Virus genome (UHGV): UHGV-0067928
From: a virus
Strand: one strand, 5' to 3'
Length of the DNA: 24,002 nucleotides
This document shows, piece after piece, positions 1,405 through 9,134 of this stretch (positions are counted from its first letter, which is position 1; every line of letters begins with the position of its first letter). The translations under genes were made by a program, and so were the position numbers. The notes under the pieces were generated by a model. The model was not told where the DNA came from and did no database searches. It saw nothing but the letters and a program-made list of their open reading frames with translations.

Positions 1405-3879
1405 CTACATTGCCATTAATATAAACATAGCCAATTCGTCATAACGAATTCCGTAGCGTCCACCTGCTTTTTTTACAAGAATCATATTTCCTGTTTTATA
1501 TTGAGAATAAATTTTCTCACCTGTATCAGGATCTGTGCTCTCTTCAGTTATCACCTCTTCATCCCATACGTCTGGCCATTCATCGTAACACCAAAAAGCA
1601 TATTGCTCAGGATTTAAACCATGCTTTCTAAGAATATCTCCTACGGTTTGAGCACCAACTCCAAAATGATACCTTGATAACTCCAATCCTTTAAAATTAA
1701 TCGACTCATTAAACCTGAACTTGCATATAATTCCCTTTATTTCCAGCGCAGCATCACGCTCTGCCTGAGTAATGTCATATATTGTTTTAAGTGTTTCATC
1801 TGATGTGCTTATAGTCCCGGATGCAGAATAAATCTGAGCCCATCTAAATGATGGTGCACCAAGAGATTTGCTGTTATCAATAATTGGTGAAAAATTACCT
1901 TTAATGGCAATATTTCCAGAGTCGCCGAATATATTAATAACTGCAGAGTCATCACCATGGTTTTTTACGCTTAAGTTTCTTGATGAAATATTTATATCTT
2001 TGTTATATCCACTAACATAAATCCATCTTTTACCATCAATGTGATGCCCGGAAATATTTCCGTTTGATTGTTCGTCAGGTGACTCTCTAAGAACAATAGC
2101 ATCTACTCCAGACGACCATTGTATTTTTGTATCTGTAGGCCTCCAGTTCTTTATAATGAACGAACCATCAGTAAACTCCGTTTTTATTTGTCTATTGTCT
2201 ACAAATGCGTCTCTTGGTTTAAACTCACTTGTGTTAACGCTGCTCTGAAGATCAGAAGCAAAAAATCTAAGATTTCCTGTATAACCCTGAGTCTCGGTCA
2301 GGTTATACGCAATCATAATTCCATTTTCAAACTCAGATGATGTTATTTTAACATCACGGCAATCACCAAAAATGCAATTTCCTTTATCAAATGTTGTTTG
2401 AGCTTTGAATTTATCAAACCTTAAATTACGAACAGGGAAACCATCAACCTCTAATGCAAAGGATGCAGGAAGGCCAAAGTATTCTGATGGCTTACCTGAT
2501 GTATGATCAAGAGTAGTGGCTACTGTATTCTCAAAAACAGTCCCGCTAAAATTATTACCAATTGACGGAAACCTGATTACACTTATTGTACCTTGTATTT
2601 CAGGAGAAATACCAGATAGTGTGATGTTAGTTCCATCAAATGATGCATCTGAATACGTATATACTGATTCACTGCCAGCAATTTTAAACTGTTTAACTGA
2701 AGTTATTCTCATCGACTTTTTATGTTTAAATGTCACTGAGCTTTCAGTATTACTTACAAGATCAATCTGAGGGCTATTCCTTATCGCGATTCCTGACTGG
2801 ACATAAACGTTATTAAAGTGCGTTTTTTCAGGATTTCCCTTCATTGAAAGGCTCCCGTCATTTTCTGTCAGTAGTAGTCCTTTTACCCTCCAATAGCCGA
2901 CAATCTGTACGTTATCAATAACTGAATCACAGCTATCGTATACATGCAACCCTATATCCCAGTTATCACCCAATGAATAAGAATCAGGGTTATTGTATCC
3001 TTCAATACCATTTTTACTTACCATTATTCTCAGATTGCGTAACTGTGATGCCCTGTTGATACTAACAGCTACGCTCATGGCTTTTGGTGTAGCAGGAGTA
3101 ACACCTACAGAATCTTCATTCGTAAACTCAGTGAACTTACAAGATATCCCTTCAACAATTTTAGCTGGTCTTTCATTAGAGATGTTAAAAAAATATTTGT
3201 TTTTTTCTCCATCACCAGTAAATACAAGATGGGTTCCTTTACTCCAACTTTTTAATAATCTTTCAGGCGCTGGTCTATATGTGTCCCAATAATCAATGCC
3301 AGATCCAACCAGTGAACACCCCTCAGGAATGTTAATATTCTTCTTGATGATGCATATTCCTTCAGGAATTGTTATAACCGACCTTCCAGAGTTTAAAGCT
3401 TTAATAAAAGCATCTGAATCATCTGTTACCCCATCTATTTTTGCTCCCCACCCTCTAACATCTCCACAATCTCTCCATCGTGCCATCTGCAACTCAGGAT
3501 ATTTTTTAGCGCCATCTGGATCTTCTAATTGCTGCCGTAGCTGATCGGGGTCATACTTCAGCACATTAGGAAAATAGAACTGCTGCGCACCATACGCATC
3601 GTATACAGCCATAGAATGGCCTTGCACAGTTACGAACTTGGCAATCTGTCCGTTATATACCGGATATCCAGCAGCGTTAATGATGATTGGCTGCGAAACA
3701 GGAACGTGAGAACCGTCTTCATTCTCCACATAAACCTGAATCTGGTTTTCAGGATTTACTGGGTCAGTGTCAATTTTACCGATATAAATTTTGCCATTGG
3801 CTACGGCTTTAAAAGAACGAGCCATAGTGAAGAGTTGAGAAGGCATGCTCACTACAACATTGGCTGTAATGTCTGTCAT
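1405..3879 (-). CDS. Tailspike protein: P22-type head-binding N-domain, beta-helix receptor-binding/depolymerase body, C-terminal S74-like autochaperone domain
   Basis: N-terminus [11 protein letters not shown]...[12 protein letters not shown]...VLKYDPDQ closely follows the P22 gp9 head-binding domain. Repetitive beta-helix-like middle. C-terminal ~130 aa begin [11 protein letters not shown], resembling the intramolecular-chaperone (peptidase S74) domain of endosialidase-type tail fibres. SD GGAG lies 8 nt upstream of the ATG. Confidence 0.9.
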
Positions 3880-4057: not shown

Positions 4058-4981
4058 TCAGTAGTTATGTACTGAAGGAGGTAATTCTTTATTCTTAAGT
4101 CTCATCCATGCGGAAATATTCGTTGGTCCGTCTGGCTCATTGATATCAACATCTCGTGTGTGATTGATTAAAACGTCTCTCGCCATTCCGATAACATACG
4201 AGAATTCATGACCGTAGTCGTAGCATCTGCCGGAATAGTTCGATTGAATTTGTTTTAATGCCGGATACAGTTCGCGGAATAATGCCTGTGAGCGGTTGGC
4301 ATAATCCCATAGCCATACAAGGCTGTTTGCTTCTTTTGCAGAAAGCTCGTTGGTTTTCTTCTCTTGTTTGCCAATGAACTCACCTTCAAGCGGAACTCGA
4401 GCTGCAAGTGACAGTGCTTCGGTAAACTGCTCCTCACTGATTTCTTTGTATGAACATCCAAAATGGGATTTCAGTGACGACCACATGGTGATCATCGCCT
4501 TAGCCTGTTTTTCCTTTGGCAGAGACTGACCGCGACTCATGACGAGTTGTTTAATGGCTTCCTGCTGTTCAGTGGTGATTTTACCCGGCAACGCCTTTTT
4601 AGCTTTGCGTGGGTTAACTACATGACCTTTAGTCCAGTACTCATAGAGCACATCGTCACACTCTTCCTGATACTGGATTACCTTGTCGCGGATTTCAGGG
4701 CGGACTTTGTTAGGGCTGATGGTTTGCAACCAGCCATTCAGTTTACGTAAAGCAAGGCAAATCATGGTCTGCACACCGCCAACTGAAGGTATTGCGATTT
4801 CCACAATACCTTTAGCAAATCTTTGTTTTAACTTTGTAAACTGTGAAGCCCAATCCATACCCATTCCCTCAACGATAGGTTTCATTGGGGTATACGGTTC
4901 GCCGTTGTGATTGACAACATAAAGCTCTGCGCCGTGGAATGGTACATTGATAGTAGATACTGCTGTTGCTATACTTTTCAT
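4058..4981 (-). CDS. ant: Antirepressor Ant
   Basis: 307 aa. The N-terminal region (MKPIVEGMG...[24 protein letters not shown]...[15 protein letters not shown]) matches the AntA/P22 Ant family; it sits downstream of arc as in P22 immI. Confidence 0.8.
4947..4975 (+). promoter_or_regulatory. Putative Psar promoter (antisense to ant)
   Basis: -35 TTGATA (4947-4952), 17-bp spacer, -10 TATACT (4970-4975), located within the first codons of ant on the opposite strand. Confidence 0.45.
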
Positions 4982-5054
4982 GTCGTTAATTCCTATGCGT
5001 GGTTTTACGATACCGAAGCCCTGACTGTTCCAGCAGTTGGGGCTTCAACTTTTT
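4982..5054 (+). ncRNA. sar: Sar-like small antisense RNA covering the ant ribosome-binding site
   Basis: About 70 nt from the predicted start after Psar to the hairpin GAAGCCC...GGGCTTC (5015-5046) plus TTTTT (5050-5054). Complementary to the ant start/RBS and arc 3' end, the same architecture as P22 sar. Confidence 0.4.
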
Positions 5055-5199: not shown

Positions 5200-5283
5200 C
5201 TACACCGTGACAACTAAATACTACACCGTGTTTATTTAAAGTCAAAAATTTTTTGCCTACACTGTGTAGCTACGCACAGTGTG
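5200..5283. promoter_or_regulatory. Divergent arc/ant and mnt promoter-operator region
   Basis: Direct repeats CTACACCGTG at 5200-5209 and 5221-5230; palindrome CTACAC-T-GTGTAG (5257-5269) inside the longer inverted repeat ACACTGTG...CACAGTGT (5259-5282). Candidate minus-strand promoter: -35 TTGACT (5240-5245), -10 TAGTAT (5218-5223). Confidence 0.5.
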
Positions 5284-5294
5284 CAGGAGGAGAA

Positions 5295-5546
5295 ATGAAA
5301 GGTGCAAGAGATATCAGTCCATTGGGGATTAGGATTCCAGACTATTTAAAGAAACGCATTCAGCAAGAAGCGGATAAAAACGGCAGATCAATGAACTCAG
5401 AGATTGTGCTTATCCTTCAAAAACATGTTGATAATCTTGATGGCTCTCGCTCACTTGAAGGATTCGCTAACCAAGAAGCTGATAAATTCAAAGAGGCGCT
5501 GCTTGAGACGCTGAGGAACATGCAAGAAAACAAAAAACCCACCTGA
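5295..5546 (+). CDS. mnt: Mnt-like ribbon-helix-helix repressor
   Basis: MKGARDISPLGIRIPDYLKKRIQQEADKNGRSMNSEIV... (83 aa) has an RHH N-domain and C-terminal helix like P22 Mnt. SD AGGAGG lies 5 nt upstream of the ATG at 5295, divergent from arc. Confidence 0.75.
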   Translation: MKGARDISPLGIRIPDYLKKRIQQEADKNGRSMNSEIVLILQKHVDNLDGSRSLEGFANQEADKFKEALLETLRNMQENKKPT

Positions 5547-5559
5547 AGGTGGGTTTAGT
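5538..5559 (-). terminator. Intrinsic terminator of the two-gene operon (convergent with the mnt 3' end)
   Basis: Minus strand: ACCCACC-TTCA-GGTGGGT followed by TTTTTGT, immediately after the TAA of the 149-aa gene. The stem overlaps the last codons of mnt. Confidence 0.6.
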
Positions 5560-6004
5560 CAAACATAGTGTTTCTAAAGTCTCTCGCATACCCTGCTAAC
5601 ACTCTCATTCTATTATGATTGTTAGCAGACATGTGAGCTACAGGATGAAAAAGAGCAATCAATGAATACCTGTTCTCATCAAAAAGATTTTGTGCATAAA
5701 CGAGAGCGGTATTGGATGTTTTATGCCACTGCAACTTTTGCGGTGTGCTGATATCTGTGCCATTTTTTATTGGCTCAAATTTATTTTCACCAATTGCTAA
5801 ATGAAGGTGCATAAGACCTGCATCTTCAATATCAGGAGGCCGATGATAAGAGGTGTCTCTGCCAAAATAGCTGGGCAACGTTCCCGTAGACTTGTAGATG
5901 ATAAAATCATCTACAAGTGTTTGTTTTAAATCAGGAAACTCAACAAAAACCGGGGAGAAAAAATAGTCAAAACTATCCTGATTATATTCCACGGTTACTT
6001 GCAT
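5555..6004 (-). CDS. Hypothetical protein, 149 aa; candidate toxin/effector of a two-gene module
   Basis: SD GAGG 7 nt upstream; start lies 8 nt after the stop of the upstream gene. No confident domain; a faint recalled resemblance to YafO-family toxins (FGRD, HLHL segments) is unverified. Confidence 0.6.
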   Translation of the reverse strand: MQVTVEYNQDSFDYFFSPVFVEFPDLKQTLVDDFIIYKSTGTLPSYFGRDTSYHRPPDIEDAGLMHLHLAIGENKFEPIKNGTDISTPQKLQWHKTSNTALVYAQNLFDENRYSLIALFHPVAHMSANNHNRMRVLAGYARDFRNTMFD

Positions 6005-6012
6005 GTTTTACC

Positions 6013-6579
6013 TCAGTGGAAGTTACCAGAGTGAAACACACGAGTCCCGTGCTCAGCAAGCGCACACAAACCAGCCATATCTACGGAACTATCAAAAACA
6101 ACCGGAACACATGAGCGTTGTTTAATAAGACTATTCAGGTTAGTTACGGCAGATCTAGCATCAGCAACAACGATATAGATATCTCTTGCGATCTCTTTAA
6201 AATCAGCAGAAGCTTCTTTGAATACCGATTTCATTGCCCCTTCAAGTCCTCTCAATTGATGCTCTATCAATCGAGACTTTTCTGGTTCAATGATAGACAA
6301 CACATTGTCTACATTCTCATCGGTAGCGTTTGCAAGAACACGATAAGCGTATTTCAGCATTCGAGACAATTCTTTAATCGAAGACACCGCCTCATGAAGC
6401 TCATTATTAGCCCGTTCACTGCTGAATGAGGATTGATGGTAAGCGTGCTGAACGTTATCAGTAACAACCACCTCACAACTGAACGCAGAAGCTTGCTGTA
6501 ATAGCAAACCTATTGCGACTCCAGCTTTGGCAGCGTTCAAGCTAAACATTTCATCAATCCCATTAGTCTCATTGCTCAT
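6013..6579 (-). CDS. Hypothetical protein, 188 aa; first gene of the two-gene module
   Basis: The ATG at 6579 is preceded by AAGGAGG with a 5-nt spacer; the ORF-track start at 6609 is less likely. Predicted helical, no recognisable motif. Confidence 0.6.
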   Translation of the reverse strand: MSNETNGIDEMFSLNAAKAGVAIGLLLQQASAFSCEVVVTDNVQHAYHQSSFSSERANNELHEAVSSIKELSRMLKYAYRVLANATDENVDNVLSIIEPEKSRLIEHQLRGLEGAMKSVFKEASADFKEIARDIYIVVADARSAVTNLNSLIKQRSCVPVVFDSSVDMAGLCALAEHGTRVFHSGNFH

Positions 6580-6646
6580 ACAAACCTCCTTCTTATCGGA
6601 GATTATCAATAGCTATGTATCCATTGAATACACGCTATGCGCAGTA

Positions 6647-6675
6647 ATTCTACGTCACGTGATATCATTATGCAA
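6647..6675 (-). promoter_or_regulatory. Putative promoter of the two-gene operon
   Basis: Minus strand: -35 TTGCAT, 17-bp spacer, -10 TAGAAT. The spacer contains the overlapping palindromes TCACGTGA and TGATATCA. Confidence 0.45.
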
Positions 6676-6750
6676 CCACCGTTCTATCACCAGTAGATGA
6701 TGCCTCTCCATACATCATCTGGTATCCTGCTCAAAACTAAGGAGGTTGGT

Positions 6751-7101
6751 GTGAATGCTCAGTCTGTCATCATGGTTTTCCTTGGGCTGATTGTCGCAAA
6801 ACTATATCCAGACTGGTGGAAAGGGGCATTAGCTACTGTCGCCATCTATTTGCTTTTATCCATCGTTAAGCGATCACTCGCTGAGACCGTAAATCAAGCA
6901 AAACGTTTCTCATTTAAGAGTTTAATAAACTATGTTACTGGGCTTATTTTTTGCCTTTCAATTCTGATCGCTTCGGCTTTTTTGCCCGTATCAATAGCTA
7001 ATTTTTTTGGCGCACCATATGAGGTAGGTTATCTATTCTCTGTTTCCTGTCTTGCCATTGCTCTTCTTTACCTTTGGACGAGATCAAAGAATAAAAATTA
7101 G
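6751..7101 (+). CDS. Small integral membrane protein (about 4 TM helices); candidate superinfection-exclusion or immunity protein
   Basis: The GTG at 6751 is preceded by AAGGAGG; the upstream ATGs at 6697/6700 lack an RBS. Four hydrophobic segments. Transcribed divergently from the two-gene operon, opposite to the late genes. Confidence 0.55.
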   Translation: MNAQSVIMVFLGLIVAKLYPDWWKGALATVAIYLLLSIVKRSLAETVNQAKRFSFKSLINYVTGLIFCLSILIASAFLPVSIANFFGAPYEVGYLFSVSCLAIALLYLWTRSKNKN

Positions 7102-7130
7102 CCATCCGTGGCTGCCAGTTATTGAGTTTC
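7100..7130 (-). terminator. Weak putative terminator after gp16
   Basis: Minus strand: AGCCA-CGGA-TGGCT followed by AATTTTTATT. Short stem. Confidence 0.3.
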
Positions 7131-9134
7131 TTTTTGTGATGCCTGTGCGACTCTGGTGAGCGATTGTGTGACCGTACTGATCGCTCTGTCATATGCTGTG
7201 CTACCTTTTGGCGTATTTGCCAGACGTAACAAGGCATTTCGTATAACAGGGCTTTCGTATGCCTTCGCTGCTCCTCCTACGACACCAGCAGCAGGAACAA
7301 CAAACGCAGCCGTTTTTAGCATCCCCGCTAATACTGCTGCGTTTATGATGCCACCACCAACTAACAATCCATAAAGCTGCTGACCATTTAAGTTTTGAAC
7401 GTTCGCTTTTGCCGCGTGTCTTGTATCGTTGAGGTATTTAATAACGCCGTCCAGTTCCTTTCCATGTACGCCTTTAAAGAAAGTTGCTGATTGCTTCCTG
7501 TTCCGGTGTAACGCATTAATAAACTTTTCAACACTAATATTTCCAGACGGATCAGTCGCCTTATCTACAGCATTCTGAACTATGGCTGCTCGTGCGTTTT
7601 GCCTACCATTGTCATCCAGAAGCCTGTAAAGCTGAGAACGTTCTGATGGGTTTTGGCTAAAAACGAGTTTTGTTACATCCTCAGGTGTAGCCTTGCCGCT
7701 GGCTATTGCCTTTTGAACGCGCGTTCTTCCCATCATGTCATTGAATCTAGCCCATGAGCGATCAACCCTAGACATATTGGCAGCTTCTTCTGAGCCTAGT
7801 TTTTGGGATACTGCTTTTTTCATATCCGCTGTATATGCCTTGTAGACAATATCGCTGGCTTTCTGGAGCGTATCTTTATCAACAGTGTCAGATGACGCCA
7901 TAAATCGCTTTCGAAGATCGGTTCTGTTTTCCCTCGCCAGACGCAGGTCATTTGGTCCGCTGGTGATATCGTCTTTAAATTGCTGCAAGACTTTTACCGC
8001 GGCTCTATCCTGAGATTTGCCCGGGCGGCTTAACACGGCAATCTGATTGTCGATAGCTTTTACCGTGTTTGAGAGATCGACAGGGGTATCCCCCATAGCG
8101 TCAATTATGCGGTTATATCGCTTTCCTGCTGCCTCAATGAATTTTTGCTGCCCTTTAGTCGCAGACTCATAAAGCTGTTTATCTGAAATTCCCCCCAGAC
8201 CATCGCTAAATGTTCTGACTAAATTTTCTCGTGCTTGTTGTTGATTCAGTCGGTTCTTACCGGTTCCAAAAAAAGGAACTCTTTCGCCTAATGTTTGGGC
8301 CTGCCCCTGCATAAAGGTTTTATCTTTCAGCGTGTCACTGGTCATTAACGGCAGGTTTCTTTCCGACGCAAAATCGACAGCAGCCTTTGCTTCCGGTGAC
8401 ATCTCACCGCGAACAGCCCTGGAAACCGCACTAACTGTATTTTCCAGCCCCTTGCCAACACCACCAATGCCAGCAGAAATTACCGTTTGTGCAGGATCAA
8501 TATCTTCTCCTCCAGCAAGACTGGTGCCACCCTGTAGTGCTAAATCTGTAGCAGCTGATTTCCCTATGGCACCAAGCACCGTTCCAGCCCTGCCCGCTGG
8601 TGTGAACGCTAACGCATTAGCAAGAAACGAAGTCAGGTCTTGCGGTGATAAACCTGGCTTGTTCAGGGCATAATCACCGGATGGCAGGGAAACGATAGTG
8701 TTACCCTTCTCATCCTGCCTTAATTTCGCCCCCATACTCTGAAGAATCTTTTCCTGAGACGCCTCGGAGCCGAAAAGTTGAGACCATCCAGCCTTCAGGG
8801 CATCCATGCTTAGTGAGTTCAACTCAGGGGCAGCCCCAACATTTTGCAGTCTCTCCATTTCTGGTGTCATTCGGCTTTCACCGGTAACGGCATCGCGCAT
8901 TGCAGCACCTAAAACAGCCCCTTGCTCAGCAGAGCGATCTAGTCCTTCCTTCTGCTGAGTGGCAAGCTGTGTATATCCTGATGCAAGTGAGTTGTCTGCT
9001 GGCGATTGCTGAACACCTTGTTGTGTTGGCGCTGACTGACCAGCAAAATACTCATCAATGGCGGTGCCAATATCTTCCGTGCTCGTACCATCAGGGAAGG
9101 TAAATGTCTTACCGTTTGCAGTTACTTTCATCAT
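7119..9134 (-). CDS. Ejection (E) protein, P22 gp16-like
   Basis: 671-aa ORF in the gp16 position, last gene of the 14-7-20-16 block. Start ATG overlaps the gp20 stop (ATGA). Confidence 0.7.

Follow-up and report, generated by a model that had tools for sequence, protein, structure and literature searches.

The stretch of viral DNA analyzed here (UHGV virus genome UHGV-0067928, 24,002 nucleotides [nt]; the window, hereafter) carries a small gene, T116, at positions 6751-7101 of its plus strand. We find that T116 is an uncharacterized prophage moron lying in the slot that sieA occupies in phage P22, downstream of a leader that it has in common with sieA. The open reading frames (ORFs) that fill this slot in different prophages and satellites share no detectable similarity, and appear to have been exchanged as units behind that fixed leader. 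The 116-amino acid (aa) product of T116 is predicted to be a membrane protein that, by analogy with SieA, may act in exclusion of, or defense against, incoming phage.

The T116 gene, its product and its distribution

The T116 coding sequence extends from a GTG codon at 6751 to a TAG codon at 7099-7101 (116 codons), and its Shine-Dalgarno sequence (AGGAGG, 6740-6745) is separated from the GTG by 5 nt. The initial annotation of this region had described a 116-aa ORF with four hydrophobic helices, transcribed against the direction of the late genes, and each of these traits is borne out by our analysis. The ORF is also conserved as coding sequence. Comparison with the Yersinia ortholog (71% identical) yields a ratio of nonsynonymous to synonymous substitution rates (dN/dS) of 0.13-0.15, with a dS of ~1.26 and no indels over the 116 codons, which shows coding constraint. 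In E. coli prophage L007 an ATG replaces the GTG at the same start position, and the GTG and Shine-Dalgarno sequence are retained in all other T116 relatives, including the Yersinia and Edwardsiella copies and those in phage-inducible chromosomal islands. The N-terminal sequence MNxQxxI is kept down to 38% identity. Furthermore, an upstream in-frame TAA leaves the S88-type allele of T116 without any earlier start. Given the low dN/dS without indels and a start position kept in all relatives, T116 is a genuine gene, and, judged from these alignments, the 116-aa start is the only one backed by comparison.

Public annotations report T116 as a protein of 109, 116, 129-130 or 151 aa, and ORF lists give 134 aa in the window; such differing start calls are seen at 6697-7101 of the window, at L001:7245-7574, at L005:4984-5373 and in P0009. 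Two of these candidate starts were considered and rejected. The 134-aa version would begin at an ATG (6697) that falls inside the allele-specific left arm of an inverted repeat described below, and S88-type relatives present an in-frame stop at that place. The 109-aa start (ATG 6772) called by the Prokaryotic Genome Annotation Pipeline (PGAP) would leave out the seven upstream residues MNxQxxI, conserved to 38% identity, and one relative has an ATG at the position equivalent to 6751.

Kyte-Doolittle hydropathy identifies four hydrophobic segments in T116 (residues ~5-19, 25-39, 59-83 and 93-109), with clusters of Lys/Arg in the loop spanning residues 40-58 and in the C-terminal tail. Two AlphaFold2 models also present four helices (residues 3-18, 22/23-49/52, 55-85 and 90-114/115), with predicted local distance difference test (pLDDT) values of 57 and 63 that are too low for fold inference and make secondary structure alone usable. 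By prediction, T116 is a small multi-helix membrane protein, and the four helices on which the initial annotation relied are found both in the hydropathy profile and in the models. Hydropathy and the positive-inside rule suggest a four-span topology with both termini in the cytoplasm (N-in/C-in). Helix 1 and the loop-1 turn are the best conserved parts of the protein (0.79-0.80), the predicted cytoplasmic loop and tail the least conserved (0.51-0.53), and the strongly conserved motifs comprise the KLYPDWW turn after helix 1 and the APYEVGY loop, together with helix 3. If the predicted topology is right, the conserved faces would be membrane-embedded and periplasmic, with KLYPDWW and APYEVGY facing the periplasm.

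The window corresponds to the immI/'ant moron' end of a P22-like prophage in reversed orientation, with the integrase gene, an 824-aa ORF, ant, the sar RNA, arc, an mnt-like gene, a YafO toxin gene, a 188-aa gene, T116, gp16 and gp20 following in that order. From ant to gp20 this order agrees with the P22 map, and T116 falls in the place of sieA, which in P22 likewise converges with gene 16 from the other strand. The placement of T116 at the exclusion-gene locus of P22-like phages in the initial annotation is correct, insofar as T116 is found where sieA would be expected in the immI region of a P22-like phage. The adjacent gene (7119-9134, minus strand) encodes a gp16-family DNA-ejection (injection) protein (phrog_770, 'DNA transfer protein', E 3e-171) whose homolog is labeled P22-gp16 family protein in RefSeq, and the stop codons of the two convergent genes are 17 bp apart. 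All T116 relatives examined, down to 38% identity, are likewise convergent to a gp16-family gene at a distance of 17-22 bp. The gp16 proteins adjoining T116 homologs match PF26808 and their C-terminal tails align, and T116 occurs with both types of gp16 C-terminus.

Relatives of T116 were identified in E. coli prophages and islands, in Edwardsiella and Yersinia, and in metagenomes, and a profile hidden Markov model search of 1.84 billion representatives returned seven clusters, all of them belonging to the same narrow T116 family. A tblastn search with T116 yielded no match among 50,697 phage records, so that the gene is so far known from prophages and islands only. The single match among plasmids was a 4.9-Mb record that is in fact a chromosome, and a scan of genome contigs with the T116 family alignment produced no confirmed locus. 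T116 is an annotated coding sequence in 229 of 5426 complete E. coli genomes (~4%), with carriers that include the extraintestinal lineage of sequence type ST95, avian pathogenic E. coli (APEC) O1 and S88, as well as strain 042 and O111:H8 strains. The 61 E. coli copies with at least 99% identity lie, where inspected, in P22-like prophages (of strains such as APEC O1, S88 and ATCC 11775). Another 167 copies show 90-95% identity, and the three of these that were inspected are located in satellite-like islands by yicG or yicG/dinD, not in prophages.

The island of strain 042 (L147, NC_017626 4199323-4227664; loci L005, L006, L131 and L144 are listed with it) extends for ~20 kb up to its integrase gene. 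It harbors integrase, antirepressor, Ash-family, TOPRIM/DUF927 primase and PerC-like regulator genes, and its P22-like phage genes are limited to gp14-like, gp7, gp20 and gp16. This architecture, with ejection-protein genes of its own, is the same as that of EcCIMP1, a satellite mobilized by the P22-like phage Kapi1 (PMC11773190), and the Edwardsiella copy and one metagenome copy of T116 reside in similar satellite-like contexts. EcCIMP1 was considered as a possible T116 carrier and discarded, since it does not contain T116. In its place, EcCIMP1 of E. coli MP1 presents a 232-aa ORF (L148:5132-5830, minus strand) that begins with MIKNLLLILSLSLLAGC and has a lipoprotein-type signal; the gp16 analog next to this ORF is a 906-aa protein with a lytic-transglycosylase domain. 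The 232-aa ORF might be the source of the superinfection immunity that has been published for EcCIMP1 without an explanation.

A common leader with interchangeable cargo

To the left, the slot is bounded by a sieA-type leader (6714-6753, plus strand) that comprises an extended -10-like element (TGGTATCCT, 6720-6728), the AGGAGG sequence (6740-6745), a 5-nt spacer and the GTG start codon (6751-6753). When the region was compared with phage genomes by megablast, the match was confined to 42 bp (6714-6755). The leader sequence ATCATCTGGTATCCTGCTCAAAACTAAGGAGGTTGGTGTG is invariant across other P22-like phages, and the alignment ends exactly at the start codon. The leader is 100% identical in seven phage records and present in 69, including those of P22, HK620, epsilon34 and SE1. 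Upstream of P22 sieA, 34 leader bases are found with one mismatch, abutting the annotated sieA promoter, and 85 bp upstream of sieA suffice for full exclusion from a single chromosomal copy (PMC10883804). The T116 ORF opens precisely at the GTG, or ATG, with which the leader (...TGGTATCCTGCNCAAAACTAAGGAGGTTGGT) ends.

The sequences that precede the leader fall into at least nine unrelated classes, which have in common only CAT(CT) before GGTATCC. A shared promoter element, if there is any, must hence lie inside the leader. Within TGgTATCCT (6720-6728), the TG and the T-A-x-x-x-T positions are kept, also in the diverged Edwardsiella copy (TGGTAGAGT), and this conservation suggests that TGGTATCCT is a putative extended -10 promoter. 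Rfam searches gave no match in the leader, the sar RNA being the only match in the neighborhood, and the RNA folds computed for the leader, for the inverted repeat and for the 3' hairpin were no better than those of shuffled sequences.

To the right, a short hairpin (AGCCA-TCCG-TGGCT, 7100-7113) lies in the 17 bp that separate the stop codon of T116 from that of gene 16 and marks the 3' boundary of the slot. It constitutes a terminator-like site for the minus strand. The hairpin sequence GCC(A/G)TCCNTGGC directly follows the stop codon in 8-9 of the 11 families of slot cargo described next, and in all T116 relatives down to 38% identity.

A scan of viral contigs for the leader identified at least 120 loci, and the 123 leader-bearing loci listed were used to define cargo families. 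Eleven families of ORFs start at the leader GTG, with no detectable similarity to one another. The most frequent is formed by hkcB-like proteins with one helix and a coiled coil (39 loci), followed by a 129-aa signal-peptide protein (25 loci), a 62-aa two-helix protein (12 loci) and a 75-aa protein (10 loci). SieA, 92% identical to that of P22, occurs in eight loci and T116 in seven, ahead of a 140-aa soluble protein (six loci), a 149-aa protein (five loci), proteins of 106 and 99 aa (four loci each) and a 68-aa protein (three loci). An N-terminal hydrophobic segment is present in 10 of the 11 families. With the exception of SieA and of the 68-aa protein, which has a YobH-like match, these families correspond to 'unknown function' in Pfam and PHROGs. 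The initial annotation considered small inner-membrane proteins at this locus to be typically superinfection-exclusion factors, which overstates the case, given that such a function has been demonstrated for SieA alone among the 11 families.

Upstream sequence classes and cargo families combine freely. Since leader similarity stops at the start codon and the hairpin comes directly after the stop codon, the alignments indicate that the cargo of the slot is swapped almost exactly from start codon to stop codon. The region has been recognized as a variable 'moron' since 2008, including the APEC O1 prophage that bears T116 (PMC2629481). In the literature searched we did not find the shared leader or the ORF-precise exchange described, and searches on hkcB, the 'ant moron' and mapped sieA transcription starts yielded nothing beyond PMC2629481 and PMC10883804. 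This fixed leader, with interchangeable and mostly envelope-directed cargo, is a notable by-product of our analysis.

Some slots contain two stacked ORFs (L026, L029, L046, L057, past the first cargo ORF, and L130:5627-6330 of Yersinia). In these slots the first ORF is followed by a GCCATCCNTGGC hairpin, a shortened leader, ATCTGGAGGTT(A/G)AT(A/G)TG, and a second ORF encoding a membrane protein. The shortened leader keeps the ribosome-binding site and has lost the TGGTATCCT...AAAACTAAG part. In Yersinia, T116 is the second of the stacked ORFs, after a signal-peptide protein.

Phage exclusion and its alternatives

The slot itself, the sieA leader, the predicted membrane location, the strict linkage to an ejection gene and the retention in many genomes all point to a role of T116 in exclusion of, or defense against, incoming phage, which we regard as the most likely of the roles considered, if somewhat short of probable. 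The strong ribosome-binding site of the leader, along with the putative extended -10 element, would allow T116 to be expressed on its own from the prophage. The product would then be an envelope protein of the lysogen that protects both host and prophage against incoming phage, in the manner of SieA, and it would be a functional analog of SieA instead of a homolog. SieA acts at the inner membrane, where it stops the delivery of DNA by P22-like phages, and mutations that escape it map to gp16/gp20.

The resemblance to P22 SieA (phrog_7745/PF26849) concerns location, expression signals and general kind. Both genes occupy a slot convergent with gene 16, which in P22 lies between genes 16 and 9, and both have the 34-base leader core, with one mismatch, and a GTG start. 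SieA is also a small inner-membrane protein with several helices, as predicted for T116, and has a prophage-type expression context (PMC10883804). In contrast, SieA is 162-164 aa long and has three helices, whereas T116 has 116 aa and four predicted helices, and the characteristic motif of SieA is cytoplasmic while the best-conserved motifs of T116 are predicted to be periplasmic. BLASTP of T116 against P22 SieA gives an E-value of 0.29, the T116 family alignment aligns to a nine-member SieA type-A alignment with an hhalign probability of 0.3%, and T116 has no match to the SieA PHROG (phrog_7745) at E<=1. By these comparisons, T116 does not appear to be a SieA homolog.

Searches of family libraries gave similar results. 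The best Pfam match of T116 is to PF07332 (holin superfamily III; E 0.065, 13.7 bits against a cut-off of 28.4), with nothing else at E<=0.1; the Pfam set searched lacked PF26849, the SieA family, and true SieA gets no match in it, making Pfam silence uninformative on this point. No significant family match was obtained in NCBIfam, PADLOC or PHROGs, a T116 profile had no match among Protein Data Bank (PDB) sequences, and a Foldseek search of the T116 model against BFVD returned nothing at E<0.1. Neither holin superfamily III nor GtrA-like flippases, T4 Imm or SieB match T116 above the curated threshold, so that the comparison with SieA, Sie-like and Imm families proposed in the initial annotation reveals no SieA homology and no curated family of small membrane proteins above threshold.

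Other phage proteins are comparable to T116 in a more general sense. T4 Imm and HK97 gp15 are short inner-membrane proteins, produced by the resident phage, that block the DNA entry of incoming phage, and are alike in kind to T116, with no similarity in Pfam or PHROGs; HK97 gp15 is cited among exclusion proteins (PMC10883804). HK620 hkcB, epsilon34 gp14 and other 'ant moron' genes (PMC2629481) are positional alleles of T116, with the same leader and slot, and encode small envelope-associated proteins. The APEC O1 prophage 'APEC-1', the ant moron of which is described in the same study, carries T116 in a region 98.6% identical to that of the window. The hkcB-like proteins themselves are unrelated to T116 in sequence, and consist of one N-terminal helix and a coiled coil, unlike the four helices of T116.

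Several observations weigh against an exclusion role. Neither by sequence nor by profile does T116 resemble SieA or any library family searched, as far as these methods can detect it, and neither T116 nor any aligned relative contains FxRYPxEAxxFNK, the conserved C-terminal cytoplasmic motif that marks SieA (PMC10883804). A consensus promoter scan of the intergenic region found no promoter, nor did we find a mapped transcription start. The structure models of T116 are of low confidence (pLDDT 57-63), its topology derives from hydropathy and the positive-inside rule alone, and exclusion is suggested by its position through analogy with SieA, the one slot family out of 11 for which phage exclusion is known. 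Among the cargo families, one is of a soluble, cytoplasmic type and several are periplasmic, and the slot may serve in general to express whatever gene is useful. Lastly, the commonest home of T116 in E. coli is an EcCIMP1-like satellite dependent on P22-like helper phages, for which a blanket block on the entry of P22-like DNA would be costly.

An alternative that we deem possible, though rather unlikely, is that T116 is a lysogenic-conversion or fitness gene contributing to envelope physiology, stress tolerance or immunity to a membrane-acting toxin or colicin, and not to exclusion, which would simply make use of the expression signals of the sieA slot. The diversity of slot cargo, which includes the soluble 140-aa protein as well as signal-peptide and YobH-like proteins, the want of a known function for all cargo but SieA, and the maintenance of T116 in satellite-like islands that rely on P22-like helpers (PMC11773190) are all in keeping with such a gene. 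Yet the sole characterized occupant of the slot is an exclusion protein, T116 is never seen apart from a gp16-family ejection gene among the relatives examined, and none of the known families of immunity proteins, transporters or envelope-modification proteins matches it.

An abortive-infection or holin-like effector, permeabilizing the inner membrane upon infection in the manner of lambda RexB, is an improbable identity for T116. RexB is the four-span inner-membrane effector of RexAB abortive infection, and needs RexA. T116 resembles RexB as a small protein of four predicted helices encoded in a prophage, and there is the non-significant similarity to holin superfamily III; the latter (13.7 versus 28.4 bits) is far under threshold, however, and no similarity to RexB was detected. 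Moreover, T116 has no constant partner gene, and its freely varying neighbors argue against a linked sensor. The lysis cassette of P22-like phages is located elsewhere, and PADLOC provides no match.

It is very unlikely that T116 serves the ejection-protein module, for example as a membrane factor required in gp16/gp20 function, assembly or self-compatibility, and not host defense. The strict linkage to gp16 in prophages, and in islands that keep only gp14-like, gp7, gp20 and gp16, would be expected of such a gene, but T116 is read against the late operon, and its leader is the one from which P22 has its lysogen-expressed sieA. Sibling phages, furthermore, have unrelated genes or SieA instead, and T116 is paired with both types of gp16 C-terminus.

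Returning to T116 as an exclusion protein, a broader and decidedly speculative proposal, which we consider unlikely as a whole, is that the sieA slot of P22-like prophages, and of satellites with P22-type ejection genes, is a dedicated site for the exact exchange of whole ORFs between a fixed promoter/RBS leader and a fixed short hairpin. It would hold an arsenal of non-homologous envelope proteins, each with its own way of blocking the entry of phage DNA. In this scheme, T116 would be a new exclusion protein, and its KLYPDWW and APYEVGY motifs would contact the gp20/gp16 conduit, or a host partner of the conduit, on its periplasmic side, which SieA does not.

The neighboring toxin operon and the meaning of the slot

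T116 is separated by an intergenic region of 171 bp (6580-6750), in line with the ~170 bp initially estimated, from the minus-strand ATG (6579) of a divergently oriented two-gene operon. Its first gene (6013-6579, minus strand) encodes a 188-aa protein with phrog_8416 as its only family match, and the second (5555-6004, minus strand) encodes a 149-aa YafO-family toxin (PF13957, E 3.4e-22). The match of the latter to NCBIfam PRK09885 (E 4e-22, 79 bits versus an equivalog cut-off of 153) denotes similarity at the family level only, and its RefSeq relatives are annotated as YafO family toxins. The 188-aa gene is located 8 nt ahead of the YafO gene, where a YafN-type antitoxin would be expected, and its product may be a non-canonical antitoxin.

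A putative sigma-70 promoter for this operon can be read on the minus strand (6647-6675), with TTGCAT (6675-6670) and TAGAAT (6652-6647) separated by 17 nt. S88-type loci (TAAACT) and L141 (TTGCAG/TAGACT), a locus with a 67%-identical homolog of the operon, have retained these hexamers with the same 17 nt between them. The consensus scanner missed this promoter because its -35 element matches at only three of six positions. The spacer is filled by two overlapping palindromes, TCACGTGA (6655-6662) and TGATATCA (6660-6667), which the initial annotation had reported at 6654-6667; the palindromes are present, and begin one base after the start given for them. The region has a third palindrome of 8 bp, ATAGCTAT, at 6609-6616. 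Operator palindromes at the promoter are usual for toxin-antitoxin loci. The overlapping pair is kept in near-identical copies only and is gone from L141 (67%), and by its position it may represent a possible, weak candidate for an operator of the 188-aa/YafO operon.

The region also contains the perfect 8-bp inverted repeat reported initially, which we find to be exact: AGATGATG (6695-6702), 10 nt, and CATCATCT (6713-6720). In 5000 dinucleotide-preserving shuffles of the 171 bp, before correction for multiple looks, at least one 8-bp palindrome appeared in 57% and at least two in 21%, an overlapping pair of palindromes in 3.4%, and an 8-bp inverted repeat with a 3-20 nt loop in 3.8%. The overlapping palindromes and the inverted repeat are thus each mildly unusual, but not compelling. 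The right arm of the repeat is the 5' end of the conserved leader, and the left arm occurs only in the window and in L140 among the ~125 leader-bearing loci listed, being replaced by unrelated sequence in the S88 and APEC O1 prophages, which are 98.6% identical overall. The repeat has an RNA fold z-score of -0.13, and we regard it as allele-specific and fortuitous.

The initial annotation had also hinted at co-regulation of T116 with the operon through this region, and at the three genes forming one system. The 188-aa gene is found in ten loci, nine of which have the window-type intergenic region; in these nine loci the cargo is T116 in five, and the 62-aa, hkcB-like, 140-aa and 129-aa ORFs in one each. 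Elsewhere, T116 adjoins Panacea-domain, ImmA/IrrE or helix-turn-helix genes, and in Yersinia a signal-peptide-protein gene, so that T116 does not constantly co-occur with the YafO toxin operon. The 188-aa/YafO operon is hence a separate module, with its own putative promoter. The two modules assort independently, which leaves no obligate three-gene system. Shared control is not supported either, as the start signals of T116 reside in the portable leader of ~40 bp that follows at least nine upstream classes. A three-gene system co-regulated through the palindromes and inverted repeat of the 171 bp, as the adjacent and divergent arrangement that the window shares with 51 E. coli genomes and the somewhat enriched intergenic palindromes could suggest, is exceedingly improbable and largely refuted by the assortment data: an identical intergenic region accompanies five different cargo ORFs, T116 has other neighbors elsewhere, its leader is portable, the two putative promoters stand back to back ~45 bp apart without overlap, and relatives with 98.6% identity lack the inverted repeat.

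Beyond the operon, the remainder of this end of the prophage contains the 824-aa ORF (1405-3879, minus strand), a candidate by position for the tailspike gene that close relatives have there, and ant (4058-4981, minus strand). The sar antisense RNA (4983-5050, plus strand; Rfam RF00262, 81 bits, E 8e-17) is found between ant and arc, and its presence there suggests that the antirepressor control circuit of immI is intact. In S88 and related prophages, a ClpP-like protease gene (537 bp) directly follows the mnt-like gene (L001:5191-5975); the corresponding stretch of the window (5253-5555) has no ClpP-like gene, and its mnt-like ORF (97 aa) reaches almost to the YafO gene.

If T116 does exclude phage, it would constitute a second, unrelated way of blocking the DNA-ejection conduit of P22-type phages, and would offer a handle on the passage of that conduit across the inner membrane; if it has no such role, it is one more hypothetical moron gene. 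In either case, a single invariant leader is followed by at least 11 unrelated and mostly envelope-directed genes, ten of them uncharacterized, which make up a candidate list of prophage defense or conversion genes, and the leader itself provides a natural expression cassette in which the candidates of this slot may be tested.

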